A stretch of DNA of 63,949 nt, the filler included, from Stramenopiles sp. TOSAG23-3 (taxonomy: Eukaryota), in the NCBI GenBank assembly GCA_900128585.1. It is 12 parts of 12 records of this genome, joined end to end, with 100 filler letters (N's around TTAATTAATTAA, not from the genome) between each part and the next. Parts side by side here need not be neighbours in the genome. Positions count along the whole stretch, not along the records: positions 53,795 to 60,395 come from LT643286.1; 11 more parts are not named here. One strand, 5' to 3'. The number at the start of each line of letters is the position of its first letter. Position 1 is the stretch's first letter. A program made the position numbers and the translations under genes. Shown piece by piece: positions 6,833 through 63,949 of this stretch. Below the pieces are notes generated by a model. That model was not told the DNA's origin. It was given only the letters and a program-made list of their open reading frames with translations, and did not search any database.

Positions 6833-7687
6833 CTACCACGACGGTGTGCGCTTCTCAATTAAGGCATCCAATCCTTCCCCTACTGACGTTGCGTAATTAT
6901 GCGCCTGGCAATCTGCTTCGCGCCACAACGATCGTTCAATTTGATCGTCTTGCGCATTTCTCAAACTACGCACGCACATTTGAACGGCGTCTGGGCTCTG
7001 TTTGGCAATACGGCCCGCGAGCGAAAGTGCGTGCTCAAGCGGGTCGTCCGCGAGCAAAGCCAGTCCCAAATCGCTGGCCTCTTGACCTGAGATAACGTCA
7101 CCCGTCAACAGCAAACGAGCTGCCGTTTGATGGCCGACAAGGCGAGGCAAATAGTGCGTGGCTGCCATTCCAGGGTGAAGGCCAAGGCCGACGAACGTTA
7201 GCCCGAGCTTGCATTTTGGGTGAGTGACCCGGATATCGGTGGCCAGAGCAACGCAGAAGCCTGCCCCAATGGCCGGGCCGTTCAACGCAGAAATGACCGG
7301 AATAGGCAAGTTTCGCAGCGAGAGAAAACGACGATAAAATGCCCTCATTATTTTGGTATTGTTGTACGGCGTGTCGTTCGTCCTGTCCCTCAAGAACTGC
7401 AAATCCCCCCCGGCTGAAAACGCCGTGCCAGCCCCGGTCAATACGCAAGCTTTTAAAGTGTCATCTGTAGCAAGGTCTTTCATTGTTTCCTCAAACGCCT
7501 CCCCCATGAGAACAGTCATTGGGTTCAACTTTGCCTCATTCGACAGCGTAACCACGCACACACCATTCTCTTGTTTGTCTACGACTACCGGGCCATCAGC
7601 CCGCGAAGAGAACAACCGGGCAAACGACGGAGTACCTTTTCGCGCAACAACGCTACGGGTCGTTCGTCCAACCCAACTTGAAATCAT
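6833..7687 (-). CDS. Enoyl-CoA hydratase/isomerase (crotonase) family protein with a probable mitochondrial presequence
   Basis: AFSAGGDL, PVISALNGPAIGAG, DIRV, LGLHPGM; Arg/Ser-rich N-terminus free of acidic residues (…FARLFSS). Confidence 0.9.
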   Translation of the reverse strand: MISSWVGRTTRSVVARKGTPSFARLFSSRADGPVVVDKQENGVCVVTLSNEAKLNPMTVLMGEAFEETMKDLATDDTLKACVLTGAGTAFSAGGDLQFLRDRTNDTPYNNTKIMRAFYRRFLSLRNLPIPVISALNGPAIGAGFCVALATDIRVTHPKCKLGLTFVGLGLHPGMAATHYLPRLVGHQTAARLLLTGDVISGQEASDLGLALLADDPLEHALSLAGRIAKQSPDAVQMCVRSLRNAQDDQIERSLWREADCQAHNYATSVGEGLDALIEKRTPSW

Positions 7688-8293: not shown

Positions 8294-9746
8294 CTATGTT
8301 TCATTTAGGGTTTCCATTTTATTTTTATTCCAAGAATTGAGTCCTTTCGAAATTTCAAACCCCAAGTCATTTATGGGGTTCGCAATTGTCGTCCTTCGGG
8401 CCTCCCTCTGAACTAGCTCGATCATTTGTTCTGTGGTCTTGGACTGAACGTCTTTGAAAGAAACTGCCAAACTACCAGTCCTTGCAGTCCTTTCATATTT
8501 CATTGCAGTGTAGTATTTTGACAAAGGCATGGCTTTCAGCATAATTGTCTCGACTAATAATGTAACCATTGAAAGTAAGCCCAGTGCTGACGTCAAGCAT
8601 ACAAGTACTGATTGTGGATTGAAATGATGTTCATATCCCTGGACATCTGGAATAATGGCTATACCATGCTTTACGGTAAGTATCCTTTTTTTTCCCTTTA
8701 TAATTTCTTCATTGTAGTGATGACTGTTTTCTGGACCTTTGAATATTTCAATATTATAATAATACGATAAGTTGCCTATCCCAAATACCGCATGTTTATC
8801 TATATCAGTGTACACGATGTGCACATTTAGGGTCAAGCCGTGACCCCGAAAAGGGATTTCTTCCCCCGTGTGCGTTGCTCCAGTTACCTTATCATCAAGC
8901 AGGTGCACTTCCGCGGATGTCAATCCTGCAAGAAGTAATGTTCGGACTTCATACACATCATAACCACATTCTTTCTCGCGACAAGTGGCGTCGGTGCAAC
9001 GATGGCAATCATGTGTTCTTTCCGGCTCCACTTTACAATAAAACACATCCTCCCCTTTTTGGTCTTTGTAAATTTTATCTGAATTTTCCCCATACAACTG
9101 GACACATTGTTCCCTATTTTTCGACTTCAAATGCCCCGATTCAATATGCTCTGATGTCAATTCTGGCCTTTCATTTGTGGCATGCTGAATCAAAAGGGTA
9201 TATCTCTCAACATCTGTGATATAAAATTCGCGGTTATATTCAGTTGGTTTTTCAGAGTGCGGAACGTCTAACCAAAGGTTACCATAAGCGCCGTCGGCTG
9301 TTAGCGGGTTGATATAGCTACCCGACTCGCTCAGGTTAGAGTTGAACTCCTGATATTTATACTCAATTTGAGTTGCCATGAACAGTGTTGATGCATACTC
9401 TGTGATAACATTGTTTGCGTCGACCCATATGCAATCTTTCTTGTCATGCGCATATGGTAACGTCGAAAGTTTGCAATATGGTAAGTCTGAAGAATTTGTG
9501 AAATCGTCGTAACATTCCTCTTTTCCACACAGCGGGCTTTCTTTTCCGCCGTAGCAGTGACAATGTTTTTCTCCTTTGTCGTTTCGTGTCGGGTTCGTCT
9601 GCCCACCCCCTCTTCAAATACAGTTGGTAAACAACAACCCACACAAAACAAGAAAAGAGAAGCGCGAAGCGCAGGAGGCCAAGGCGCCTGTCACGTATTA
9701 CAACCAGTCGGGTAGTTGTGTATGCGAAAAGGTCGTCACACTTCAT
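8294..9746 (-). CDS. P2X receptor-like trimeric ion channel, with a frameshift near 9605 (pseudogene or assembly error)
   Basis: N-terminal FAYTTTRLVVIRDRRLGLLR (YxTxK/R motif) plus TM1 in one frame. A second stop-free frame from ~9613 to 8294 gives a Cys-rich ectodomain, RILTVKHGI, TM2 (LTSALGLLSMVTLLVE) and a YxxxK motif. Confidence 0.75.
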
Positions 9747-10982: not shown

Positions 10983-11819
10983 ATGGCAACGCTACCTGTA
11001 ACTCTGGAGAAAGTTGGGCGTGTAGCACTGATAACATTGAACCAACCGGGGAAAATGAACGCGATGAGTTTGCCGATAGCGGATGAGTTTGTTCGTATCG
11101 TCGAAAGGCTATCAGAGGACCCATCCGAGTACGGTTGCGTTGTGATAACGGGGGCAGGGTCGGCGTTTTCGGCTGGCGGGGACTTGAACTGGTTACGGCT
11201 GCGGACGAGGGATACGCCCTCCCGGAATTCAATAATTATGCACCAGTTTTACAAGAAGTTTTTGTGTGTGCGCAAGATTCCTCTTCCTGTTATAGCTGCG
11301 ATTAATGGGGCCGCTATTGGTGCTGGGCTCTGCTTTGCTATGGCGTGCGACATTCGAATTTGCGCCGAAAAAGCGAAACTAGGCTTTACGTTTGTAGGAT
11401 TAGGACTGCACCCTGGGATGGGAGCGACGCACTTCATTGCGACTGTGGCGGGGTACGAGGTGGCGCACCGGATGCTGCTGACGGGAGAAATCATCTCTGG
11501 ACAACGCGCCAAAGAGTTGCGACTTGTCACGGAGACTGCGGTGGATGGCCCTTCTACGCTAGAGGCCGCCCTTCAGCTGGCGCGAAGAATTGCATTCCAA
11601 GCACCCATGGCAGTCCGTTCCACTGTACGCTCCCTTCGAGAAAAGCAAGACCAAGGATTGGAAGCCGCCCTATGGCGAGAGGCGGATGCCCAAGCCCATG
11701 GTTACGGCACGGCAGACGTCGCGGAAGGCATAGAGGCTGTTGCAAACAAACGAAAGCCGAAGTTTAGACTGTACGAGAGTTACGCAGACAACGCTCAACT
11801 GCCCAACGGAAAACTGTGA
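10983..11819 (+). CDS. Enoyl-CoA hydratase/isomerase family protein, paralogue of 6833-7687
   Basis: AFSAGGDL, PVIAAINGAAIGAG, TFVGLGLHPGM, LWREADAQA; no N-terminal extension; ends -GKL. Confidence 0.9.
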   Translation: MATLPVTLEKVGRVALITLNQPGKMNAMSLPIADEFVRIVERLSEDPSEYGCVVITGAGSAFSAGGDLNWLRLRTRDTPSRNSIIMHQFYKKFLCVRKIPLPVIAAINGAAIGAGLCFAMACDIRICAEKAKLGFTFVGLGLHPGMGATHFIATVAGYEVAHRMLLTGEIISGQRAKELRLVTETAVDGPSTLEAALQLARRIAFQAPMAVRSTVRSLREKQDQGLEAALWREADAQAHGYGTADVAEGIEAVANKRKPKFRLYESYADNAQLPNGKL

Positions 11820-30227: not shown

Positions 30228-32633
30228 TCACTGACGGTTGTCTTGCTCGCTGAACATGGTGAACACTTGATCACTAGTGGTCGCGTCTAGAACATCTTTG
30301 TCGTCTCGAACCCTTTCCAACCTAGGGAATCGCAAAGCGATACCCTTGGTGTCGTGGGCCTCGCCGATTGCCGCGGTGTGCGCTGGAGATATGGACAAAT
30401 CGGCTGCCTTGACTTCCCAGACCATGTCTGCTTTCAACCAAACGTCGGGGCGAAGCATCGCAGCGTCAGCCCTCACGTTGTAGTCCAAAGGCTTGGAAGG
30501 GAGAAGACGGTCCTTCCCTTCTTCGTTAAAAAACTTGTAGAACGTTTCCAGGTTCTCTTCCGAGAACCCCGTTCCAATTTTGCAGACCGTTTGGAACTCC
30601 TCCTCGTCCGGGTTGTAACACGCGCACAAGTACGCCCCGTACCACCCGGTTCGCTTTCCCTTTCCCCGCCACGCGCCGATTGGAACAAGGTCTAAGGTAT
30701 CGCCCATCCCTTCCAAGTAATCTTTCTTCAGCTTCAACCAATTCAACGACCGCCTCGACGGCTCGTACGTCGCATCTTTGTACAATGTTTTTACCATCAG
30801 CCCCTCGCAGTTGCCCTTGATGGACTCGTCCAGGAACTCTTCGATTTCTGACATTTTCGTGGCGTCTTTCCCGATCGCAAAGGTAAATTTTCCCTCCACC
30901 TCTTGGAAGTTTTCCAGCAAAAGTTTTCTCCGTTCGCCCAATGGCTTCTGGAGCAGGGACTCCCCGTTCAGGTACAGCAGGTCGAAGGCTGTCATGATGA
31001 CTTGAATCTTGATGTCCTCCTCCTTGGTGTCCTTCTTGGCGCGCGTGCTGAGGGACTGAAAAGGCATCAGCTTCTTCGCGACCCGGTCGTAGGCTATGAT
31101 TTCGCTATCCATGATGCACGACGTGACGCCTGGCTTCAGCGTCTGAGGAAGCATGGAGATGATGTCCGGGTACTTCGACGTGTTCTCCTCCATGTTACGG
31201 GAAAACACTTTGATCGTCCCGTCCTCCAGCAGGTGGACTTGACCCCGCTCCCCGTCGTACTTGAATTCGCACGTAAACTCCAGGCCCTCGAACCGGTCGA
31301 GCACTTCGCTGACCCCCTTCGTCGGCTTGGCCAGCATCGGCTTGACGGGGATCCCAGCGCACAGCTGGCACACTTCGTTGACCTTCTCGCACCCTACGCT
31401 GAGCAACGCCGGCACAATCTTGTCGTAGCTCGGCAGCTCCGAAAACGCTTGCTTCACGTTTATGATGTTTTGCTCCAGGAGGGTGTCGAACTTTTCGCTG
31501 CCCATCCCGATCCGGGAGTCCAAGGTGTCCTTGTTGGAGATCGTGACGGCTTGCCCGAGGGCCACCAGGACGGTCGCCTCGGCCAGCCCGATGCGCAACT
31601 TCCCCTGAAGGCCGCGTATTACGTACTTGGACTCTGCGCCTTTCGAGTCGACCAACATTTTCTTGATGTTCCCCACCTTCTTTTCCTGCGATTTCCCCCC
31701 CGAGATGGCCGCAATCTCCTTGAACTTCTGGAACACTTGGCGGAGGACCAGCGGTTTCGGCTTGGAAAACATCAGGCTCTTCTGCTTGCCCTTGTAGTGC
31801 ATCGCCACGGAGCCCAAGTCCCCGAGCTTGACGTACTGCTTGTTGACGAATTTCAAGTCGGTGCCCGTCGTTTGCACGATCGCTTTCTTCAACAAGGCCT
31901 CCCCGAGGCCGAGCTCGACATTTTCGAACCCTGGGGCGACTTGGTTGCAGGCCAGGTACACGGCGGGCAACAGATCTTCCGGGGTGAGGACGATGATGGA
32001 GCGAAACAGGGAGCAGAGCAAATCTTGGATTTCCAACCGCTTCGTCGTCGCTTCGATCTTCTCAAACACGTCGACAATGGCAGAGTACGGGACCGGCTTG
32101 CCGTTCTTCCACGTTGCGCTGTCGATGGGGTGGTACGATCCTTTGACCTTGTTCGAGGCGTAGGAGGTGTTGGGTGCCACCGCGGAGGAGGAGGCGGCGG
32201 GCGCTGCCGGGGCCTTCTTCACCGCTGGGGCGGCGGAGGGCGCTGCCGCTTTCGAGGACTTCTTCGCCTTCTTCGACGCCGAGGACGCCCCTGGCTTTCC
32301 AAAAAAGTTGGCGATACCCCCCGACTTTCTCTTCTTCTCTGGCGTTGCCGTTTGGGCGGTCTCTTCGGCCTTCGCGTCGCCGCTTTCCTGAACGATCGAA
32401 GCCGCGCTTTCCTCGTTGGAAACGGACCCGGGGGACGGCGCGTCCTTTGCTTGCGCCTTGGCCTCTGGGGATATCTTCGCCGGTGCCTCTGCTTTCGGCG
32501 CTTTCTTCTCGGTTGCCTTGGCGCCCGCCTTGCTGAAGAACGACATGATGCCTGATTTTTTTGCTTTCTTTTTCGGGGGCCCGTCCGAAGAAGAAGAAGG
32601 CGTAGACGCGGTCACTGATGCTGGTAGTTTCAT
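30228..32633 (-). CDS. LIG1: DNA ligase I
   Basis: PIP-like GIMSFF and GIANFF; PMLAKP; CEFKYDGER adenylation motif; CEGLMVK; WLKLKKDY; ALRFPR. Confidence 0.97.
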   Translation of the reverse strand: MKLPASVTASTPSSSSDGPPKKKAKKSGIMSFFSKAGAKATEKKAPKAEAPAKISPEAKAQAKDAPSPGSVSNEESAASIVQESGDAKAEETAQTATPEKKRKSGGIANFFGKPGASSASKKAKKSSKAAAPSAAPAVKKAPAAPAASSSAVAPNTSYASNKVKGSYHPIDSATWKNGKPVPYSAIVDVFEKIEATTKRLEIQDLLCSLFRSIIVLTPEDLLPAVYLACNQVAPGFENVELGLGEALLKKAIVQTTGTDLKFVNKQYVKLGDLGSVAMHYKGKQKSLMFSKPKPLVLRQVFQKFKEIAAISGGKSQEKKVGNIKKMLVDSKGAESKYVIRGLQGKLRIGLAEATVLVALGQAVTISNKDTLDSRIGMGSEKFDTLLEQNIINVKQAFSELPSYDKIVPALLSVGCEKVNEVCQLCAGIPVKPMLAKPTKGVSEVLDRFEGLEFTCEFKYDGERGQVHLLEDGTIKVFSRNMEENTSKYPDIISMLPQTLKPGVTSCIMDSEIIAYDRVAKKLMPFQSLSTRAKKDTKEEDIKIQVIMTAFDLLYLNGESLLQKPLGERRKLLLENFQEVEGKFTFAIGKDATKMSEIEEFLDESIKGNCEGLMVKTLYKDATYEPSRRSLNWLKLKKDYLEGMGDTLDLVPIGAWRGKGKRTGWYGAYLCACYNPDEEEFQTVCKIGTGFSEENLETFYKFFNEEGKDRLLPSKPLDYNVRADAAMLRPDVWLKADMVWEVKAADLSISPAHTAAIGEAHDTKGIALRFPRLERVRDDKDVLDATTSDQVFTMFSEQDNRQ

Positions 32634-54131: not shown

Positions 54132-56540
54132 ATGGCGTCGACACGTGCGCACAAATACGTCTTCTCTATTTGGTATGCCGCGCGGCACGGGAGACAAGAA
54201 AGGGTAGAAGAGTTAGTAGAACGAGATGGGATCGGCCTTCTCAATTCGATAGACACGACGCATGGAGGGCTTACTCCGCTGCACTGGAGTTCGAAATTCG
54301 GGCATGTGAAACTGACCAAGTGGTTGCTGCAGCGAGGGGCGAACCCGTCCGCCGTTGCGGATAATGGTAGCACCCCGCTGCACTTGGCCGCGGGCAACAG
54401 CACTTTAGAAATGGTTCGGCTTTTGTTAGAGTACGCAGCAGAGCCGCGCTTGAAAGACAGCAAAGGCGACACTGCAGCAGAGGTGGCAAAAACGTATAGA
54501 CGGTTCCCTAGCGAAGATCTGATTCGGCGATGGGTTCCGTGTGGTGGTTTCCCGGATATGAGGTCGTCGGGGTTTGAATTCCAGCGAGTAGACGAGCACA
54601 GTTTGCGGTTCACCTTGCCGCCTCCGAAACCACCGCCAAAGCCCCGGCGGCCTTTGGAATGGATGACTCCGGCGGAGGCGGACACAGAAGAGTCCAGGCG
54701 GGATGCCAAGGCGCACCTGTCTGTCTTAGTCGAAACGCTAAAGCTGAAAGAGCAGGGGTTAGGGAAAGATTCCCCTAGTGTAGGGATCAGCTTGCTGAGA
54801 ATGGGGCGGTGCCTCCGGTTGCTGGGCCTTTCACACAAAAAGGACACTCTGAAAACCCTTCATAGAGCCCTTGAAATTTTTGAAGCGCAATACCGAAAAG
54901 CCCAAATGGCCCTTCACCCACCGGAAACGCGGCAACCGAACGGTGAACAGAAAAACGTGGGAGAAGGAGCAGACGAAGACGGGGACAATGACTCCTCAAA
55001 AATTATAGACACGTCCGGCCCTGAGGAAACGATCGACGAAGGGAAGAGAAACATGGACCCGTTGCATGAATCTAAAATTGAAGTTAGCGATCGGATAGTC
55101 AACACCAACGACGGTGAAACCGCAACACGGCCACCCTTTGTTCCTGCCCAAGTATTGCCATCTGCACTAAAAATTGCGACGCAGCGGACAGACGAGTACG
55201 CAACCGTGTTGAAAGAATTGGCGTCGGTGTACGTGACCCACGGCCATTTTGTCGAGGCCGAAAAGTATACGCGCAGGGCTGTGAGGATCTTGTCGATTCA
55301 AGACGGCGACAAAGGGAGTACGATCGACTTGGCGGGTGCGTTGACAAACTTGGCCCTGCTGCTTCGAAAGAACAGGACCGTTGTTACCGACCCCAGGCTC
55401 AAAAAGCAAGATATGACGGCGGTCGAGCTAAAGAAGAGAACTAGCGAGGAAGACGCTATCGAAAGCGAGCGGAAGGAGATAGATTCTCTCCTTCTAAGAG
55501 CTTTGGTTATATCTGAGGAAAACCTAGGGCCAAATCATTTAGACACTGCTGAAATATTGATCCACATATCGAGGGGGCACATGCTGAGAAAGGAGTTCAA
55601 GAAGGCAGCAGTGTGCTGTGAACGGGCCCTCGGGATAATTGGAGAGGCAAACCCAAATACAGAACAGCACGCTAAGCTTTTCGATGAGCTTGCAGAAAGC
55701 TACTTTAAGATCGGACGTTTCGACCTAGCAGAAAAACTGTTTCAGAATGCGTTGGAGATCCGAGAAGCCCTCCACAATACTAAAATGATCCCAGACCTTC
55801 AAGGGAGCCCGAGGGGAGAAGATTTACCTACTATTCCTATTGTAGAAGACGGCACAGACGATGAGCTGGTCGCATCAGAAAAGACAGAGAGTAAACCGTT
55901 GGAAAACCTGGACAGGACAAAAGGTGGGAGACTCGGCGCCATGAGGCGGACCATGCAGAAAGTACACGAGGCGGACGAGGGCAATGCGGACGCTTCCGTC
56001 CCCATCATCATGCGGGCAGAAGCTGGGACAGTGGAAGGCAAAAAACGGATAATTTCGGAGGAAGAGAAAAAGCAAGTCCCATTTTCAAAAGGGTATGTTC
56101 GGAGAAAACCAGAAGATTACGAGTACGAGGAAGTAACTTTGATTCACCCAGATGTTCGTCGCACGTTCAACAATCTCGCTATTGCTTCCAACGAAAAGAT
56201 AAAAGTTGAGAGGAAACTAAGACGAACCCGAAGGGCTAGCATTCAAAAATACAGAGCAAAAGTTGACCGGGTTCGAAGGAAAGACGACCGCTTGTACTTG
56301 TCGGAGCGGCCTCTCCGCGAAGCCGAAGGTGTGTACAGCGGAACAGTGGGAGGGAAAAGCGCCGTTTCAACCGTATTGGACGAGTACGACAAGGTCGGCG
56401 TGAAGGGCCAGCAACGTTTTAAGCTGAAACACATCAACGACGAAGATTCTCTCCTTCTCGGTGACCGGGCGCATGTATCATCCCGGCAGAACTCATCCCT
56501 CCCTAGAACCTCGAAAAGTGGAAGAAGAAGAAAGAAGTAG
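54132..56540 (+). CDS. Ankyrin plus TPR (kinesin-light-chain type) protein
   Basis: GLTPLHWS, GSTPLHLAA; LGPNHLDTA, AEKLFQNALEIRE, HPDVRRTFNNLA. Confidence 0.88.
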   Translation: MASTRAHKYVFSIWYAARHGRQERVEELVERDGIGLLNSIDTTHGGLTPLHWSSKFGHVKLTKWLLQRGANPSAVADNGSTPLHLAAGNSTLEMVRLLLEYAAEPRLKDSKGDTAAEVAKTYRRFPSEDLIRRWVPCGGFPDMRSSGFEFQRVDEHSLRFTLPPPKPPPKPRRPLEWMTPAEADTEESRRDAKAHLSVLVETLKLKEQGLGKDSPSVGISLLRMGRCLRLLGLSHKKDTLKTLHRALEIFEAQYRKAQMALHPPETRQPNGEQKNVGEGADEDGDNDSSKIIDTSGPEETIDEGKRNMDPLHESKIEVSDRIVNTNDGETATRPPFVPAQVLPSALKIATQRTDEYATVLKELASVYVTHGHFVEAEKYTRRAVRILSIQDGDKGSTIDLAGALTNLALLLRKNRTVVTDPRLKKQDMTAVELKKRTSEEDAIESERKEIDSLLLRALVISEENLGPNHLDTAEILIHISRGHMLRKEFKKAAVCCERALGIIGEANPNTEQHAKLFDELAESYFKIGRFDLAEKLFQNALEIREALHNTKMIPDLQGSPRGEDLPTIPIVEDGTDDELVASEKTESKPLENLDRTKGGRLGAMRRTMQKVHEADEGNADASVPIIMRAEAGTVEGKKRIISEEEKKQVPFSKGYVRRKPEDYEYEEVTLIHPDVRRTFNNLAIASNEKIKVERKLRRTRRASIQKYRAKVDRVRRKDDRLYLSERPLREAEGVYSGTVGGKSAVSTVLDEYDKVGVKGQQRFKLKHINDEDSLLLGDRAHVSSRQNSSLPRTSKSGRRRKK

Positions 56541-57077
56541 AAGAAAAAATAAAAGCCGGCGGGTGCGTTACTTTGCTCAAGGAGAGTTTATATAAACGGG
56601 GAGCTAAAATACTTAAAAAATAATACCAAAAAATGGTAATAAAATAACACGATGAGAGACACGCGCGTTCTTCGTTACTATTTTATCTAATACCATCGTA
56701 CTGTACATATATAGAACACAGCATTAGCAAAATAGAAATCGAATTTAAATAATAGTAAAAAAAAAATGGCAGTCCGTCATCACACACGTATAAGATATAT
56801 TAAATAATAATAATATACTACCACACAACACTACATTACTACATTACTTCTCCTTTTTTTTGTTGGAATAATAATTAATTATTATTATTAATTAAACCAT
56901 GCGTAAAATATACACGTTTTACAATCCAACTGCACTTGAGAAACAAATTAACAAAAACTTTGAATGTTATTCATTCACGATCATCGCTTCATTTTATTTC
57001 ATTTGACCAACAAGTTTTCCAGACGAAGAAAAATTTACAAACGGAGTTTTGTATCTTACGAACTAAACCAGAACGCT

Positions 57078-58460
57078 ATGGCCGAGACAGGATTTAATGC
57101 CTACGAGGTGTTGGGGTTGCCCGCGGACAGTGACGAAGAGGCGATTAAACAGAAATACCATGAACTTGCAAAAAAATATCACCCTGACAAACAAAATAAC
57201 AAAAGTGAGGAGGAAGTTGCGAAGGCAAAGGAGCTTTTCGGGAAGATTCAGAAGGCCTATGAAATCTTAACGGACAATGAAGCTCGAAGTGCGCACGACA
57301 TTGTTATATCAGAGGCACCGGACTATTCGAAGAGACCGGGAGGCGACGCCCCACTAGAGGTGGCGCTCTTGATATACATAACCTCTTGGGGCATATCTCG
57401 AATAGACGGCCACGAAACGCTGAATTTAAAAATCAGCATCGAATCTTACTGGACCGATCACAGGCTCAGGGGCTGGCCGAAGGGGAAGGAACTCCCTGAT
57501 GACTTGTGGAGACCCGAGGTTTTCGCTCGCCCATTCTCAACCGTCAAGGATGAAGAAGGGCCAACGATTTTCGACCGCAATGTGAATGATGGTAGGGTCC
57601 GATACACTTTACCCCTTAGCGATATGAACAAGAAACTAGACGATGATTTTGACCGGCTGAAGAATTTCCCGTACGATTGTTTGAGGCTCGATACGTTCTT
57701 GTGCTTGTCTGGGGAACATAGACTCGAGTCAAGCAAAGACATCACGCTTAAATTAGGAAGAACTCTTGTGTCTGGCAAGGAGGCCCATATTATTTGCCCA
57801 GCACACTTTCGTTCGGGCGAGTTCATTATGACCGGTATGTCGTACGGTCTTGGCTTTCACACGTCTCCCAACATGAAAGACCAAAAGTACATAGACTTGG
57901 TATTCTCTTGCCACCTTAAGCGCGACCCAACGTTTTACAAATACAAAGCAATATACCCTACCATGGCAATTGTCTTGGTCAGCCTTGCGACTTACAGCAT
58001 GGACGCCGCTGATCTGGGAGATCGAATGGAAACCGTTATTGGGATGTTCCTCACATCTTTTGCTATCCAGTGGACCGTAATGGAGCGTCTCCCGCCAACG
58101 CCATACCTGAACAACGTCGACTTAGGATTGGTGAGCGCGCTCAGCGCAATGGGTATGATCATAGTAGGCCATTGCACTGCCTATCGAATCTCAAAATACG
58201 ACGAAGAGATGGCAGCAACGTGCGATTGGGTGTTCTTGATCGCGATTGTCTCTTTATACTCCATCTCCCAAGTCGCGCTGATATTTCGAATGAATAAGTT
58301 TTCCGGCAAAGGCGCCGGTCGCATGTGGAAGGAAGGCAATGCCTTCTTTAATAGGATGTGCACCATTACGGAAGGTTACTATTGTGAGTTTAGTACTTCA
58401 AATTGGAGCTTGGGCCAGACAAACGTTGGGGAAAAGGTGGTAGACCTGAAGAACTTTTAG
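57078..58460 (+). CDS. J-domain (DnaJ) fused to a Cys-less pentameric ligand-gated ion channel
   Basis: YEVLG…KYHPDK…IQKAYEIL; then YWTDHRL, LWRPE, FPYD, LKR..FY…YP (M1), DR…FLT (M2), LP.TPY…D (M3) and M4. Confidence 0.9.
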   Translation: MAETGFNAYEVLGLPADSDEEAIKQKYHELAKKYHPDKQNNKSEEEVAKAKELFGKIQKAYEILTDNEARSAHDIVISEAPDYSKRPGGDAPLEVALLIYITSWGISRIDGHETLNLKISIESYWTDHRLRGWPKGKELPDDLWRPEVFARPFSTVKDEEGPTIFDRNVNDGRVRYTLPLSDMNKKLDDDFDRLKNFPYDCLRLDTFLCLSGEHRLESSKDITLKLGRTLVSGKEAHIICPAHFRSGEFIMTGMSYGLGFHTSPNMKDQKYIDLVFSCHLKRDPTFYKYKAIYPTMAIVLVSLATYSMDAADLGDRMETVIGMFLTSFAIQWTVMERLPPTPYLNNVDLGLVSALSAMGMIIVGHCTAYRISKYDEEMAATCDWVFLIAIVSLYSISQVALIFRMNKFSGKGAGRMWKEGNAFFNRMCTITEGYYCEFSTSNWSLGQTNVGEKVVDLKNF

Positions 58461-58878
58461 GTCGGAGGAAGGAAAAAAAGATAGGAAAATAATTATTACA
58501 ACTACCATAATATGTATTCTTTTACTAAATGTTTGTACTTATTAAATAGGAAGTATATATTCTAAAATGCGGTGATCTTCTATCTAAATTCGAAAATACA
58601 TATTTTTCCCCTGCTGCTCTCATCATCCTCTCCTCCTCTCTGGTCGGTCGGCGGCCTCTCTTCTCTCTTCTCTCTTCTTCTAATTCAACAACAATTTATA
58701 ATATCCTCATCTCAATTTGTAATAACTAAATTCTAAATTTATGTTAGGTGGAACAATTTCAATGTGTATGTAAACAGAACCATAAAAAGGGAATATAACA
58801 ACAAAGCAAGAGAGGCATTTTGAAGAAGGTTATTACGCTTGCATCTGTGATATTGAAACCCATTTTGTTTGCAGTATT

Positions 58879-60300
58879 ATGTCGGACGAGCCGGACACCG
58901 AAATGGCAACTCAGGCACCTCGTCCCATCGACCACGAACAGCTTTTGCTTCGCCCGTCTCCCTTTGGGAACGAGACGGGGAAACTGCCCAACGGTATATT
59001 TGAACCTGGGGCAGATGTCGTCAAGAGCTTGGGCTCTTCCCGTGTCCTAGTGATCGGTGCGGGGGGGCTCGGGTGCGAAATTTTGAAGGATTTAGCGATG
59101 AGTGGGTTCAAGAACATTCACGTTATTGATATGGATACGATCGACGTGTCCAACTTGAACCGACAGTTTCTGTTCAGGCAAAAGGACGTTGGTGGGTACA
59201 AATCGGAAGTAGCGGCTAATTTTATCATGTCCAGAGTCCCTAGCTGCAATGTAGTAGCGCACGTGGGCAAGATCCAAGACAAACCGCCCGAATGGTACAA
59301 GGGCGGCACGGCGTATTTGCCCGACGGGACGGAGGAGACCTACGAGGGCTTCACCACGGTAATAGCGGGACTGGACAACATCGCAGCCCGGCGGTGGCTG
59401 AACGATATGCTGTGTAGCTTTGTTGAACTAGACGAGGACGGCGACATCGACGGGGAAGAGAGCACGATTATCCCGTTAGTAGATGGGGGCACGGAGGGTT
59501 TCAAAGGCCAGGCGAGGGTAATTTTGCCGCGGATCACCTCTTGCTTTGAATGTTCCATGGCAACGTTTACACCATCGACTGTCTTCCAGCTCTGCACGGT
59601 TGCAGAGAATCCCAGAAAGCCAGAGCACTGCATCGCGTACGTCATGTTTGCAATAAATGGGACTGCGTCGGGGAAGGCGGCGGAGCCGTACAAAAATGGG
59701 TGGGAGAGCAAGTTTGGAAAGGGGGCCAAACTAGATAAAGACAACCCAGCCCACATGCAGTACATCTGCGCCAATGCGATAAACCGGGCCAACGAGTATA
59801 ATATCCCGCCACCGGACTACATGCTGACCATGGGGGTCGTGAAGAGTATTATCCCTGCCATAGCGTCCACGAACGCGCTGATTGCCGCCTGCTGCGTCAA
59901 CGAGGCCTTCAAAATTGTGACGTTTGCCTCACAAACGCTGGACACTTGGCACCAGTTCATGGGAGCCTCAGGGATCAATTCCTTGAAAATCAGCTACGAA
60001 AAGAACGAGGCCTGCCCCGTCTGTTCGGGTCGCCCCGCAATGCTAAAAGTTGACCTGAACACCACCACGCTCAGAGATGTCCGAAAGGTTTTGTCCGAGC
60101 CACCTTTCTCGTTTGGCGACTGCAGCATTCGAGGCGCAGGGAAAACCCTCTTCATGAACAAACCCCCGGCGCTACGAAAACAAACGGAGCCGAATCTGCC
60201 AAAAACATTGGCAGAGCTAGATGTATCACTTGGCGACGAATTGAGCCTGACAAGTAGTCTCTTGTTTAGCAAGCAGACGGCGAAAATAGTCGGGCTTTAA
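58879..60300 (+). CDS. UBA3: NEDD8-activating enzyme E1 catalytic subunit
   Basis: VIGAGGLGCEILK, SNLNRQFLFR, GLDNIAARRWLN, DGGTEGFKGQARV, LCTVAENPRKPEHC, IPAIASTNA. Confidence 0.95.
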   Translation: MSDEPDTEMATQAPRPIDHEQLLLRPSPFGNETGKLPNGIFEPGADVVKSLGSSRVLVIGAGGLGCEILKDLAMSGFKNIHVIDMDTIDVSNLNRQFLFRQKDVGGYKSEVAANFIMSRVPSCNVVAHVGKIQDKPPEWYKGGTAYLPDGTEETYEGFTTVIAGLDNIAARRWLNDMLCSFVELDEDGDIDGEESTIIPLVDGGTEGFKGQARVILPRITSCFECSMATFTPSTVFQLCTVAENPRKPEHCIAYVMFAINGTASGKAAEPYKNGWESKFGKGAKLDKDNPAHMQYICANAINRANEYNIPPPDYMLTMGVVKSIIPAIASTNALIAACCVNEAFKIVTFASQTLDTWHQFMGASGINSLKISYEKNEACPVCSGRPAMLKVDLNTTTLRDVRKVLSEPPFSFGDCSIRGAGKTLFMNKPPALRKQTEPNLPKTLAELDVSLGDELSLTSSLLFSKQTAKIVGL

Positions 60301-62897: not shown

Positions 62898-63949
62898 TTA
62901 GCAGACTGAAGGAATATCACCGACCGACCAGAAAGGGCGAGTCGATGACACCTGAAGTCTGGCCAGTAGCATAACCGTCCACCCCCGAGTGAAGTGTGGG
63001 TTTTCGTCGTTCGGGTTTCCTCTTGTGTTGTATCTGTGGGATTCTTCCGTGCGCGGTGTGTTTTCCTTCTTAGTGCGTTTGGTGACTGCCGTGTCTCTCC
63101 CCTGGTTGGGAGATATTAGTTTGCTCCCCTGGATATGGGATAAGTTTTCGCTCCCCTGGTTTGGAGATATTAATTCGCTCCCCTGGATATGGGGTGTCGG
63201 CTCGCTCCCCTGGTTTGGGGATGTCGGCTCTCTCCCCTGCGTCGGGAATAGCTGTGTGCGGACTTCTCGCACGCATTTAAGTTTTGTTTGTTTGTCCGCG
63301 TCCGTTTCAGGCTCGATTATTGTAACTCTTCTCCCCTCGAGAATCGGGGGTGTGAACGGGTGAGGACGTTTATTTTCGATGCGGAAATCAGGTGGGGTAT
63401 CCTTGTCGAGTGATTCAAAGCTGTAGCGATCCAGTTGTAAGCTTTTGGTCGTGAGTGGTACGTGTGTGCGTGTAATTGGCAGTTCCTGTGCAATCTCATT
63501 GTAATAATTTTGAGTCCACGTGCAGCTTTGGTCGAAGTTTACGTGTTGTGCGTGGATGGTGGCGAATTTTGCGCTGGCGTCGGTGCCTCTGGTTAGTCGT
63601 GGGTCCCATAGGATATATCCTTTGCGGTCGAGTCCGATAAAAATGTACGGTTTGGCGATTGGGCACATTTTTCCAGAGCGCTCCTTGGGATCGATGCGGA
63701 CCCAGGCGATGGATCCGAAGACGACTAGTTGTGATACGTGTGCTTTGGCTCCGCACGCCATTTCGTATGGTGATTTGCTGTCTGGGTTTGCAGAGCAGGG
63801 AAGCAGGTTGATGATTCTGGCTGCTTCGACTATGGCGAAGTTCCAAAGTTCGACCGGGAGTTTTGCGATCTCCAGCAGAGATCTTGCCTTTTCGCGAATG
63901 AATCGGATGGATATTTCGACGAAACCGTTTTGGGGGCTGGCGTTCGGTG
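62898..63949 (-). mobile_element. Ty1/Copia LTR-retrotransposon pol fragment (integrase C-terminus and SH3-like region); no reverse transcriptase in the contig
   Basis: Frame open from the contig end: SPQNGFVE…ARSLL…LPVELWNFA…AARIINLLP…SPYEM…LVVFGS…IFIGL..KGY.LWD. Confidence 0.88.
63094..63240. repeat. 27-bp minisatellite (~5.4 copies) inside the Copia linker
   Basis: Units begin T(C/T)(G/T)CTCCCCTG at 63094, 63121, 63148, 63175, 63202 and 63229; they encode QGSEPTPHI-like 9-mers. Confidence 0.9.

Follow-up and report, generated by a model that had tools for sequence, protein, structure and literature searches.

Which side of the membrane does a ligand-gated channel face when its N-terminus is a chaperone-recruiting module, and what would that module do there? 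Ligand-gated ion channels of the pentameric type (pLGICs) serve as textbook receptors for extracellular transmitters, and J-domains stimulate the ATPase of Hsp70; both are encoded in a single reading frame of the 63,949-nucleotide stretch of DNA from Stramenopiles sp. TOSAG23-3 analysed here (filler included; hereafter, the window). An earlier note on this stretch had described the product as a J-domain joined to a signal-less, Cys-less pLGIC subunit and had proposed that its ligand-binding domain (LBD) may lie in the cytosol, where Hsp70 could assemble or gate the channel and thereby couple proteostasis to ion flux. Elsewhere in the window, a DNA ligase I (30,228–32,633) is 72–80% identical to unnamed relatives but reaches only about 50–54% with the best named ones, from Blastocystis and animals, which suggests an unsampled marine protist, a stramenopile affinity being no more than weakly hinted at.

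The gene and its J-domain

The complete coding sequence (57,078–58,460, plus strand, as are all features given below) comprises 460 codons and a stop and is intronless according to the ORF call and to RNA-library contigs. RNA libraries contain the gene: positions 57,011–58,486 are covered without joints by contigs of four metatranscriptome runs, each from a different study, and no splice joints were seen over the gene in these runs. The stretches 56,661–57,008 and 58,488–59,000 are devoid of contigs from the four runs, none of which reaches upstream of 57,011, and the bareness of these intergenic flanks is a weak hint both for the choice of the start codon and for an RNA, rather than DNA, origin of the contigs. 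An in-frame ATG further upstream would add a 38-codon extension (56,964–57,077), which is probably 5′ UTR and not coding sequence; the extension is missing from all homologues, and its AT-rich composition resembles that of intergenic DNA.

The J-domain occupies residues 7–74 (57,096–57,299) and, as had been noted, is complete, stands at the very N-terminus and retains the HPD tripeptide (residues 35–37; 57,180–57,188). PF00226 (DnaJ) matches these residues with an E-value of 1.6e-18 and 67 bits (cutoff, 27.8) over profile positions 1–63 of 63, and PDB J-domains, those of Sec63 among them, match the protein at up to E 1.9e-11. In the AF2 model the J-domain folds into helices spanning residues 8–12, 20–34, 44–65 and 67–77, and HPD recurs in all eight J-bearing rows of our alignment A1. 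The zinc finger (PF00684), the DnaJ C-terminal domain (PF01556) and a G/F region were not found in the Pfam scan (E ≤ 0.1), and the LBD comes straight after the J-domain. With its J-domain fold and intact HPD, the module is thus of the class-C (type III) kind of J-domain protein (Hsp40). The two parts are joined by a 13-residue linker (residues 75–87; 57,300–57,338), which in A1 ends in an aromatic-x-x-R-P motif (Y83..R86-P87) just before strand β1. P87 is kept in 91% of the 101 sequences from which our statistics on the wider protist pLGIC family were drawn, the family itself numbering 530 cluster representatives at E ≤ 1e-3.

That the fusion is real and conserved is, in our judgement, practically certain. 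Across 57,290–57,360, where read cover had been called for, RNA-library contigs of two studies span the junction (X4 record 5, 57,239–57,470; X2 record 1, 57,113–57,343), and the DnaJ-plus-LBD architecture recurs in eight other protein clusters (P0003, P0005, P0006, P0007, P0008, P0009, P0010 and P0017), which are 43–48% identical in the alignment, as well as in one frame at five metagenomic DNA loci (L002, L003, L004, L007 and L008). Since eight clusters and five DNA loci carry the fusion and RNA contigs bridge the junction, it is not an assembly chimera. In favour of an artefact, be it a chimera or a decaying pseudogene, one could cite the variant P0004, which diverges from the window protein beyond the part common to both; however, the reading frame is intact and represented in RNA-library contigs from four studies, the five DNA loci are independent, and the full-length cluster P0002, 99% identical to the window protein, has 15 member sequences, so that this explanation has next to no chance of being correct. 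In the tree, the J-bearing proteins form a monophyletic clade (SH support 1.0), within which is nested a lineage without the J-domain (P0012; L005 and L006) that keeps the invariant pore; by tblastn, no J-domain exon is present in the 930 nt upstream of L005 or the 2890 nt upstream of L006.

A Cys-less Pro-loop subunit

The remainder of the protein is a pLGIC subunit with a Cys-less Pro-loop, consisting of an LBD and helices M1–M4. The β-sandwich LBD spans residues 88–283 (57,339–57,926), as delimited by Pfam, AF2, Foldseek, phmmer and VIA-align. The Neur_chan_LBD profile matches residues 85–283 over positions 16–215 of 216 at 15.6 bits, which is below the cutoff of 26, and Neur_chan_memb has no Pfam match in the window protein; PF02931 is found in close homologues, namely P0017 (30.2 bits) and, by precomputed hits, P0005, P0007 and P0010. 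When the pLGIC part alone was used as a phmmer query, 40 PDB sequences were retrieved at E ≤ 0.01, and all molecule names listed are those of pLGIC subunits. Foldseek aligned the AF2 model of the protein (pLDDT 78.5) with chains of GABA-A, GlyR and GluCl at E-values of about 5e-16 and a probability of 1.0 (for 6d6t_D, 5.3e-16 and 1.0 over 358 columns), whereas VIA-align superimposed 320 residues of the model range 82–444 on 9gu0_E (Z 19.5, rmsd 6.0). The three approaches agree on the subunit fold of the superfamily, a β-sandwich followed by a four-helix transmembrane bundle, placed directly after the linker as the earlier note had it.

The motifs read from the sequence by the earlier note are all in place. 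Within the LBD, these are W125-x-D127-x-R129-L130 (WxDxRL), L143-W144-x-P146 (WxP, residues 144–146), the Pro-loop F197-P198-Y199-D200 (FPYD; 57,666–57,677) and the pre-M1 Arg282; their residues are conserved in 95–99% of the 101 family members, P198 in 98%. Together with the Pro-loop Pro and the pre-M1 Arg, the protein has the basic residue at 0′, Leu at 9′ and the Pro residues of M1 and of the M2–M3 loop, and R282, P294, R316, L325 and P339 are conserved in 94–99% of the same set (P294 in 97%). In Cys-loop receptors sensu stricto, a pair of Cys residues 13 positions apart flanks the Pro-loop and forms a disulfide. No such pair surrounds the Pro-loop here: D190 and L204 occupy what we take to be the canonical flanking positions, and C201 is replaced by Ser in most homologues.

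M1 (residues 288–307; 57,939–57,998) contains the conserved Pro294 and was placed by an AF2 helix (284–307) and by HMMER alignments to sTeLIC, nAChR β2 and GluCl, and the pore helix M2 (316–337; 58,023–58,088), followed by the M2–M3 loop LPPTPY, by alignments to 6ur8_B and 3rhw. M3 (347–368; 58,116–58,181) coincides with an AF2 helix at 342–372 and a hydrophobic maximum at 349–367, and M4 (383–404; 58,224–58,289) with a helix at 376–409 and a maximum at 385–403. The M3–M4 loop between them (58,182–58,223) is short, about 15 residues, and acidic, with two Lys or Arg residues, and the C-terminal tail (58,290–58,457; 56–57 residues) is basic, with six Lys or Arg in its first 25 residues, and ends in a Phe (..KNF) that is invariant in the alignment.

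The register of M2, as set by aligning the protein with nAChR β2 (6ur8_B) and GluCl (3rhw) in HMMER, places D315 at −1′, R316 at 0′, E318 at 2′, L325 at 9′ and E336 at 20′, in agreement with the residues that had been assigned to −1′, 0′, 2′ and 9′ from the sequence. R0′, L9′ and P23′ are conserved in 94–97% of the family. In contrast to a mean column identity of 55% in A1, a block of 22 residues (323–344) in M2 and the M2–M3 loop is invariant in 10 of 10 rows, and nowhere is the protein better conserved than in the pore helix with the M2–M3 gating loop. Five subunits are expected, by homology, to form the pore. An acidic residue at −1′ is typical of cation-selective pLGICs, and the alignment confirms it here; judging from the ring charges (D−1′, E2′ and E20′, with no Pro at −2′), the pore is probably cation-selective.

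Eukaryotic Pro-loop receptors lacking the Cys pair have been described before (Jaiteh, Taly and Henin 2016, PMC4795631; this and the other papers given by PMC number are cited from the parts available). They belong to the same superfamily and share FPxD, WxDxRL, the pre-M1 Arg, the M1 Pro and the 9′ Leu; the protist clade in that study is Cys-less, as is the window protein, which comes from a unicellular marine eukaryote. Because the words signal peptide, N-terminal, fusion and chaperone are absent from the available main text of PMC4795631, we consider that this study leaves undescribed the fusion with a J-domain, the absence of signal peptides, the reversal of the charge bias and the long C-terminal tails; its supplementary alignment may already contain members of the family. 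In the literature searched, whose scope lay outside most subscription journals and supplements, we found no description of a J-domain–pLGIC fusion or of signal-less or inverted pLGICs.

Orientation in the membrane

In the window protein, no hydrophobic segment, signal peptide included, precedes M1. The maximum Kyte–Doolittle mean over ten residues is 0.73 within residues 1–45, a measure on which three ORFs of the window with a secretory or membrane prediction, serving as a positive check, score 3.1–3.8, and the 38-residue extension from ATG 56,964 is likewise not hydrophobic (19-residue maximum of 0.37), so that the statement of the earlier note that neither candidate start is followed by a signal peptide holds. 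What that note missed is that signal-lessness runs through an entire, large family of protist pLGICs instead of being peculiar to this gene: among the 101 members, whose N-termini are those called automatically on metagenome and transcriptome sequences, 100 have no hydrophobic segment (a 19-mer with a mean hydropathy of at least 1.6) ahead of the LBD. At L002, L003, L004, L007 and L008, stops lie in frame 1–4 codons before the initiator Met. An organellar presequence was ruled out as well, since only six residues stand ahead of the J-domain and leave no room for one.

The distribution of charges and the identity of the N-terminal modules point in the same direction. In a count on 98 sequences that omits the pre-M1 stretch, takes the first 25 residues of the tail and compares loops within the family alone, Lys and Arg residues are more numerous in the loops on the LBD side than in the opposite loops in 96 cases, equal in two and fewer in none (means of 7.0 and 2.3; 7 and 2 in the window protein), corresponding to 0.197 and 0.080 per residue, respectively; Asp and Glu amount to 0.210 per residue in the opposite-side loops of the family. 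A search with the pLGIC part of P0127 returned 13 protist relatives and no named canonical receptor among them. Canonical eukaryotic pLGICs have a long cytoplasmic M3–M4 domain and a very short tail after M4; the window protein, with an M3–M4 loop of 15 residues and a C-terminal tail of 57, has a different layout, and the M3–M4 loop measures 15–18 residues in most family members, with a median tail of 64. The cytoplasmic M3–M4 region of pLGICs has been called variable (PMC4795631). Where Pfam recognises an N-terminal domain in relatives, which is the case in only 5 of the 77 scanned, it is DnaJ (one), PX (one; P0099), SAM (two; P0129 and P0150) or a weak SAM (one), PX and the two SAM domains scoring above the Pfam cutoffs. 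In addition, 12 of the 101 members carry [KRQ]VxP within the first 40 residues, against 2.8 in shuffled sequences, with none of 500 shuffles reaching 12, and the motif fits the Arf4-dependent ciliary signal (K/R/Q)VxPx (PMC3172256). PX, SAM and [KRQ]VxP are cytosolic-type modules, all of them located at the N-terminal position of the J-domain.

By these heuristics of hydropathy and reversed charge, the protein lacks the cleavable signal peptide and probably also the extracytosolic LBD of a canonical pLGIC, and we regard a cytosolic orientation of the LBD as likely. The inverted topology proposed in the earlier note is thus clearly strengthened as an inference, by way of the missing signal peptide, its absence throughout the family, the charges, the PX and SAM domains and the [KRQ]VxP motif. 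M1 would serve as an N-in signal anchor, and because of this the J-domain, the LBD, the M2–M3 loop and the C-terminal tail would reside in the cytosol, with the M1–M2 and M3–M4 loops directed towards the lumen or the outside, which would be the reverse of the topology of neurotransmitter receptors. To our knowledge, every characterised pLGIC exposes its LBD outside the cytosol, which speaks for a conventional arrangement, in which the LBD and the J-domain would be lumenal or extracellular, brought there by an unseen signal-peptide exon or by unconventional translocation of the N-terminus, and the J-domain would pair with the lumenal Hsp70, BiP. Introns do exist in some lineages of the family, L007 having a probable one of 75 nt in M2. 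Nevertheless, the contigs run without joints and none extends upstream of 57,011, the stops directly before the Met at five homologous loci, the family-wide lack of a pre-LBD hydrophobic segment, the N-in charge asymmetry and the cytosolic-type modules at the same position all argue otherwise, and signal-free translocation of a folded N-terminal region of 290 residues would be unexpected; we judge the conventional arrangement to be very unlikely.

Possible roles of Hsp70 recruitment

The data as a whole are, in our opinion, best explained by a topologically inverted, probably cation-selective channel, whose cytosolic LBD is crowned by five Hsp70-recruiting J-domains, an explanation to which we give an even chance. 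The gating signal of such a channel would be an intracellular ligand that acts on its cytosolic side. The five J-domains, at the apex of the cytosolic vestibule, would attract cytosolic Hsp70 in its ATP-bound form and set off its ATPase activity. More tentatively, and at well below even odds, we suggest that Hsp70 is loaded onto the channel complex itself; the assembly state, turnover or activity of the channel would then depend on the pool of free Hsp70, and the J-domain would be an input for regulation instead of a folding aid that the channel cannot do without. The regulatory role is suggested because the nested J-less lineage keeps the invariant pore and because relatives place targeting or scaffolding modules in the same N-terminal position. 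An effect of Hsp70 on gating is purely conjectural, since the J-less lineage shows that a channel can do without the J-domain, and the idea that Hsp70 assembles or gates the channel, and so links proteostasis with ion flux, loses a little ground through this lineage with the same pore.

With the same architecture and inverted topology, the J-domain could instead recruit Hsp70 in cis for biogenesis only, so that the cytosolic N-terminal region of 290 residues stays soluble up to the insertion of the late, C-terminal transmembrane helices and the formation of the pentamer, without a role in the mature channel. All four helices are confined to the final third of the sequence (288–404), so that membrane targeting would come late, and a cytosolic LBD would be barred from the chaperones of the ER lumen; moreover, J-proteins have been reported in ion-channel biogenesis, DNAJB12 and DNAJB14 aiding that of the ERG K+ channel (PMC6080891). 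The late transmembrane layout is, however, shared without a J-domain by the J-less lineage and by all members outside the J clade (101 sequences), whereas the strong conservation of the J-domain, with HPD in every J-bearing row, fits either role; we hold the biogenesis-only role to be doubtful. It is still less probable that the main task of the pLGIC body is to hold five J-domains at one particular membrane, where Hsp70 would remodel other clients in the manner of auxilin, Sec63 or Pam18, ion flux being secondary or unrelated. J-proteins of class C typically act through where they are placed, the PDB matches include J-domains of Sec63, and the protein has neither a G/F region nor a zinc finger nor a C-terminal domain for client binding, but the 22 invariant residues speak against a passive anchor: because the pore helix and the M2–M3 loop are the most conserved part, selection appears to act on conduction and gating. 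A pore conducting polypeptides that Hsp70 would pull through, modelled on Sec63 or Pam18, was rejected because the pLGIC pore is too narrow. A broader scenario, which we consider improbable, extends the preferred, inverted channel to a widespread branch of protist pLGICs gated by intracellular ligands, some of them maybe flagellar ([KRQ]VxP), with the J subclade wired to the Hsp70 cycle as a stress sensor operating by chaperone titration: the five J-domains would load Hsp70 onto the cytosolic vestibule or the tail, and cation flux would change when heat or proteotoxic stress depletes the free Hsp70.

Partial parallels exist among known systems. The bacterial pLGIC DeCLIC likewise has an accessory N-terminal domain atop the LBD, which is modulatory, periplasmic and calcium-related in a canonically oriented channel (PMC9897478), whereas the window protein has a J-domain of the Hsp70 system, no signal peptide and a predicted cytosolic orientation. 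Membrane-held J-domains with HPD are also found in DNAJB12 and DNAJB14 (PMC6080891) and in Sec63. Those are separate proteins with anchors of their own that act in trans, whereas here each channel subunit carries its J-domain covalently, which would give five of them to a pore. In IP3 and ryanodine receptors and in cyclic-nucleotide-gated channels, a cytosolic ligand opens a cation pore. The working of the window protein would be similar if its LBD is cytosolic, but there is no homology: those channels are tetrameric, whereas the Pro-loop channel would, by homology, be pentameric, and the folds differ.

Should the family as a whole be inverted, the pLGIC fold would also sense intracellular ligands, the history of the eukaryotic superfamily would require a flip in topology and the lack of the Cys pair in the protist clade would be simply accounted for, since a disulfide would not last in a domain lying in the cytosol. 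As J-domains can act only in places with Hsp70 and ATP, the J-domain is here a topological marker and, at the same time, the physical tie predicted between proteostasis and ion flux. The fusion offers an unusually clean and testable handle both on the orientation of these channels and on their link to Hsp70.

A J-domain joined to a pentameric channel subunit

The open reading frame at 57078-58460 (+ strand; 460 codons, uninterrupted) encodes a protein, J-pLGIC, in which a J-domain precedes a subunit of the pentameric ligand-gated type of ion channel (pLGIC). This J-domain is full-length (residues 7-74; Pfam PF00226, 67 bits, E 1.6e-18, covering positions 1-63 of the 63-position profile) and carries, at residues 35-37, the intact HPD reported in the earlier note, a motif kept in 8/8 J-bearing rows of alignment A1, which comprises J-pLGIC and its close homologues; by sequence criteria, it is that of a class-C J-protein. 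Fold, signature residues and M2 register all place J-pLGIC in the Pro-loop (pLGIC) superfamily. The Pfam match to the ligand-binding domain (LBD; Neur_chan_LBD, residues 85-283, profile 16-215 of 216) scores 15.6 bits, below the cutoff of 26. Searching PDB sequences with phmmer, the whole protein retrieved J-domains together with GABA rho1, GluCl, GABA-A alpha3, sTeLIC and nAChR beta2, and residues 85-460 alone retrieved 40 sequences at E<=0.01, for which all listed molecule names are pLGIC subunits. The AF2 model, computed from a 10-row alignment (pLDDT 78.5, pTM 0.63), consists of the J-domain helices followed by a beta-sandwich (93-282) and four long helices (284-409). The matches that Foldseek lists are chains of GABA-A, glycine and GluCl receptors (top E 5.3e-16, probability 1.0), VIA-align gives a Z of 19.5 and an rmsd of 6.0 over 320 aligned residues (model residues 82-444), and the pLGIC part adjoins eukaryotic pLGIC clusters at 0.94-0.96 in a protein-language-model atlas. 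The earlier note's sequence observation is confirmed in all details: WxDxRL occupies residues 125-130, LWxP 143-146 and the FPYD Pro-loop 197-200, whose flanking Cys-loop positions lack Cys; 15 aa make up the M3-M4 loop; and HMMER alignments with nAChR beta2 and GluCl place D315 at -1', R316 at 0', E318 at 2' and L325 at 9', as well as E336 at 20' and P339/P340 at 23'/24'.

The fusion is no assembly chimera, and it occurs in RNA libraries. Four metatranscriptome runs, from four studies, yielded contigs that cover 57011-58486 without joints, and two of these contigs, X2 (57113-57343) and X4 (57239-57470), span the J-domain/LBD boundary; being assembled, such contigs inform on presence and continuity, not on transcript ends. 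A word-indexed protein search gave 13 family members, and the combination of DnaJ and LBD recurs in eight other protein homologues and five DNA loci. Seven of these, all full-length (P0003, P0005, P0006, P0007, P0008, P0009 and P0010), 43-48% identical to J-pLGIC in A1, carry a precomputed DnaJ match, and the eighth, P0017, came from an exhaustive search (DnaJ 62.7 bits, LBD 30.2 bits). Among nine homologous loci detected by scanning metagenome contigs, L002, L003, L004, L007 and L008 have both domains in one reading frame, with an in-frame stop 1-4 codons upstream of the initiator Met, which makes these N-termini complete, barring splicing. In some loci the frame is broken within M2 (L007 1220-1295; L006 near 3741; L008 604-689); the ~75-nt gap separating tblastn segments in L007 is probably an intron, and L008 has an apparent frameshift in this region. 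A database variant of 305 aa, P0004, is ~97% identical to J-pLGIC through DFDRLK and unrelated beyond, probably because its short contig (1129 bp) is chimeric or carries a frameshift.

The gene and its surroundings

An in-frame ATG at 56964 (+) lies 38 codons upstream of 57078 and is used in P0002, a 498-aa call of the same gene (99% identity, 15 member sequences). Translation probably starts at 57078, because the 38-codon extension is AT-rich and resembles intergenic DNA in composition, is missing from all homologues, and lies beyond the point where the RNA-library contigs end; neither the flanking intergenic DNA nor the ATG at 56964 is covered by contigs of the four runs. The window has a eukaryotic look, with many genes, few introns and long reading frames on both strands, encoding DNA ligase I, a UBA3-type E1, ribosomal protein L13 and ankyrin/TPR proteins, among others. 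Marine sequences are closest to the DNA ligase I (72-80% identity; best named relatives ~50-54%), and the J-pLGIC stretch occurs in marine and aquatic metatranscriptomes; we accordingly take a marine protist to be the source. The flanking genes encode an ankyrin and TPR protein (54132-56540, +), with an NPHP3-like TPR match under the cutoff, and a UBA3-type NEDD8 E1 (58879-60300, +; ThiF and E2_bind); their position does not imply that they work with the channel. A second ligand-gated-channel-like gene of the window, at 8294-9379 (- strand), is a 361-aa frame that matches part of the P2X receptor profile (PF00864, positions 285-360 of 361, 27.1 bits), likewise without a hydrophobic N-terminus (10-residue hydropathy maximum 0.36). 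A frame leaving the window end (62898-63949, -) carries a retroviral-polymerase SH3-like domain (PF25597, 46 bits) and represents a retrotransposon fragment, and two enoyl-CoA hydratase/isomerase paralogues, one on each strand, are less than 5 kb apart (6833-7687, -; 10983-11819, +).

A family of channels without signal peptides

An exhaustive phmmer search of 1.84 billion cluster representatives with residues 85-460 identified 530 proteins at E<=1e-3, including 110 at <=1e-10 and 26 at <=1e-30. From the best 150 of these matches we took those with a Met start and 340-700 aa, leaving out fragments, non-Met starts and one 3260-aa protein; with the earlier full-length homologues, the set comprised 101 sequences. 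Their N-termini are automatic gene calls, confirmed for the J clade by the five DNA loci and the window. A hydrophobic 19-mer (mean hydropathy >=1.6) ahead of the LBD is present in one sequence of the 101, P0063, and 36 have <=30 residues there, many of these N-termini being short and hydrophilic. J-pLGIC itself, noted earlier as signal-less, has a maximum 10-residue hydropathy of 0.73 over residues 1-45 versus 3.1-3.8 for three secretory or membrane protein frames of the window, and the 6 residues preceding its J-domain leave no room for a signal or presequence.

All four transmembrane helices could be aligned in 98 of the 101 sequences, and charges were counted in the M2-M3 loop together with the 25 residues next after M4, versus the M1-M2 and M3-M4 loops. 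Within this family, K+R is higher on the LBD side in 96 sequences, equal in 2 and lower in none (mean 7.0 versus 2.3); per residue, the LBD-side loops have 0.197 K+R and 0.080 D+E, and the opposite loops 0.080 and 0.210. The M3-M4 loop is mostly 15-18 aa long and the C-terminal tail has a median of 64 aa, reversing the arrangement of canonical pLGICs, in which a variable cytoplasmic domain sits between M3 and M4 (PMC4795631). What is conserved in 90% or more of the 101 sequences is the pLGIC signature (W125, D127, R129, P140, W144, P146, F197, P198, D200, R282, P294, R316, L325, P339 and D348). In A1, residues 323-344 (58044-58109), which take in the outer M2 half together with the M2-M3 loop, are invariant in 10/10 rows against a mean column identity of 55%; the pore and gating loop are thus constrained with unusual tightness. 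The C-terminal Phe is invariant across the J clade (..PEEF, ..PEDF, ..KNF; J-pLGIC tail 58290-58457) and present in 27/101; many of the 27 belong to the nearer clade and end in ..LGxG..V..[DE]F-COOH, a conserved C-terminal peptide motif.

Pfam scans of 77 relatives (47 + 30) revealed other N-terminal modules, both of intracellular type: PX ahead of the LBD in P0099 (34.6 bits, cutoff 21.6) and SAM in P0129 (31.6 bits, cutoff 23), P0150 (23.2 bits, cutoff 20.5) and, weakly, P0157. The remaining long extensions among these relatives gave no Pfam match, including the N-terminus of P0088, which by eye had resembled a PH domain. The motif [KRQ]VxP occurs within the first 40 residues, mostly at 2-10, in 12/101 sequences (P0019, P0024, P0032, P0046, P0049, P0055, P0064, P0079, P0125, P0140, P0144 and P0150), J-pLGIC not among them; shuffled N-termini averaged 2.8, and 12 was reached in 0/500 shuffles. 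(K/R/Q)VxPx is described as a signal for ciliary delivery read by cytosolic Arf4 (PMC3172256), and the match hints that some of the channels may be flagellar. In a FastTree phylogeny (LG+gamma, 336 columns), the J-bearing proteins form a single clade (SH support 1.0) that is surrounded by relatives with neither J-domain nor signal, the PX and SAM forms being outside it. A J-less lineage, P0012 and, by sequence, also P0014, P0018 and P0040, is nested within the J clade, and no J-domain was found upstream of the J-less loci L005 (930 nt) and L006 (2890 nt); the J-domain was therefore probably lost once or resides on a distant exon.

Topology and the role of the J-domain

A J-domain is of use only where Hsp70 and ATP are present. 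The inverted topology that the earlier note had proposed for a single protein is substantially strengthened by the hydropathy and charge heuristics, and we infer that it extends to the whole protist family. M1 would act as an N-in signal anchor, leaving the J-domain and LBD in the cytosol along with the M2-M3 loop and the basic C-tail; the M1-M2 and M3-M4 loops, which are acidic, would be extracytosolic, and the relative geometry of the pLGIC would be unchanged, the membrane side alone being flipped. The alternative, a canonical topology conferred by a signal-peptide exon that escaped notice, would need such an exon upstream of N-termini that are complete unless spliced, and we consider it very unlikely.

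By homology, the pore would comprise five subunits. Cation selectivity is predicted from D-1', E2' and E20' and from the absence of a -2' Pro, and the LBD would sense a cytosolic ligand. Since a pLGIC LBD has its N-terminus at the membrane-distal apex, the five J-domains, each on a 13-aa linker, would sit on top of the cytosolic vestibule, where they would recruit Hsp70.

J-pLGIC groups with the Cys-less eukaryotic clade of Jaiteh et al. (2016; PMC4795631), and differs from canonical receptors in lacking a signal peptide, the Cys pair, and the combination of a long M3-M4 domain and a short C-tail. That study left out non-aligning N- and C-terminal segments, and its main text lacks the words signal peptide, N-terminal, fusion and chaperone; the present family may already be represented in its supplementary alignment. 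Cys-less pLGICs are also reported from diatoms, in a channel survey (PMC11085791) whose text contains neither signal peptide nor DnaJ. A structural analogue is DeCLIC, described as the sole family member of solved structure with an extra N-terminal domain (PMC9897478); its accessory domain is periplasmic, whereas that of J-pLGIC is a J-domain, predicted to be cytosolic. DNAJB12 and DNAJB14, implicated in ERG channel biogenesis (PMC6080891), act in trans, whereas here the J-domain is part of the channel subunit. Full-text searches over main texts, with few subscription journals among them, turned up no description of a pLGIC that is fused to a J-domain, inverted or signal-less.

Tentatively, Hsp70 might be loaded onto the channel complex and regulate its assembly state, turnover or activity, a possibility favoured because the same N-terminal slot holds targeting or scaffolding modules in relatives and because the J-less lineage retains the same pore. 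A purely biogenetic role is only slightly less likely. That the pLGIC body is a pure membrane anchor for J-domains is unlikely; its outer M2 half and gating loop are the invariant block of A1. The link between Hsp70 and the channel is put forward as an attractive hypothesis, and one that is directly testable.
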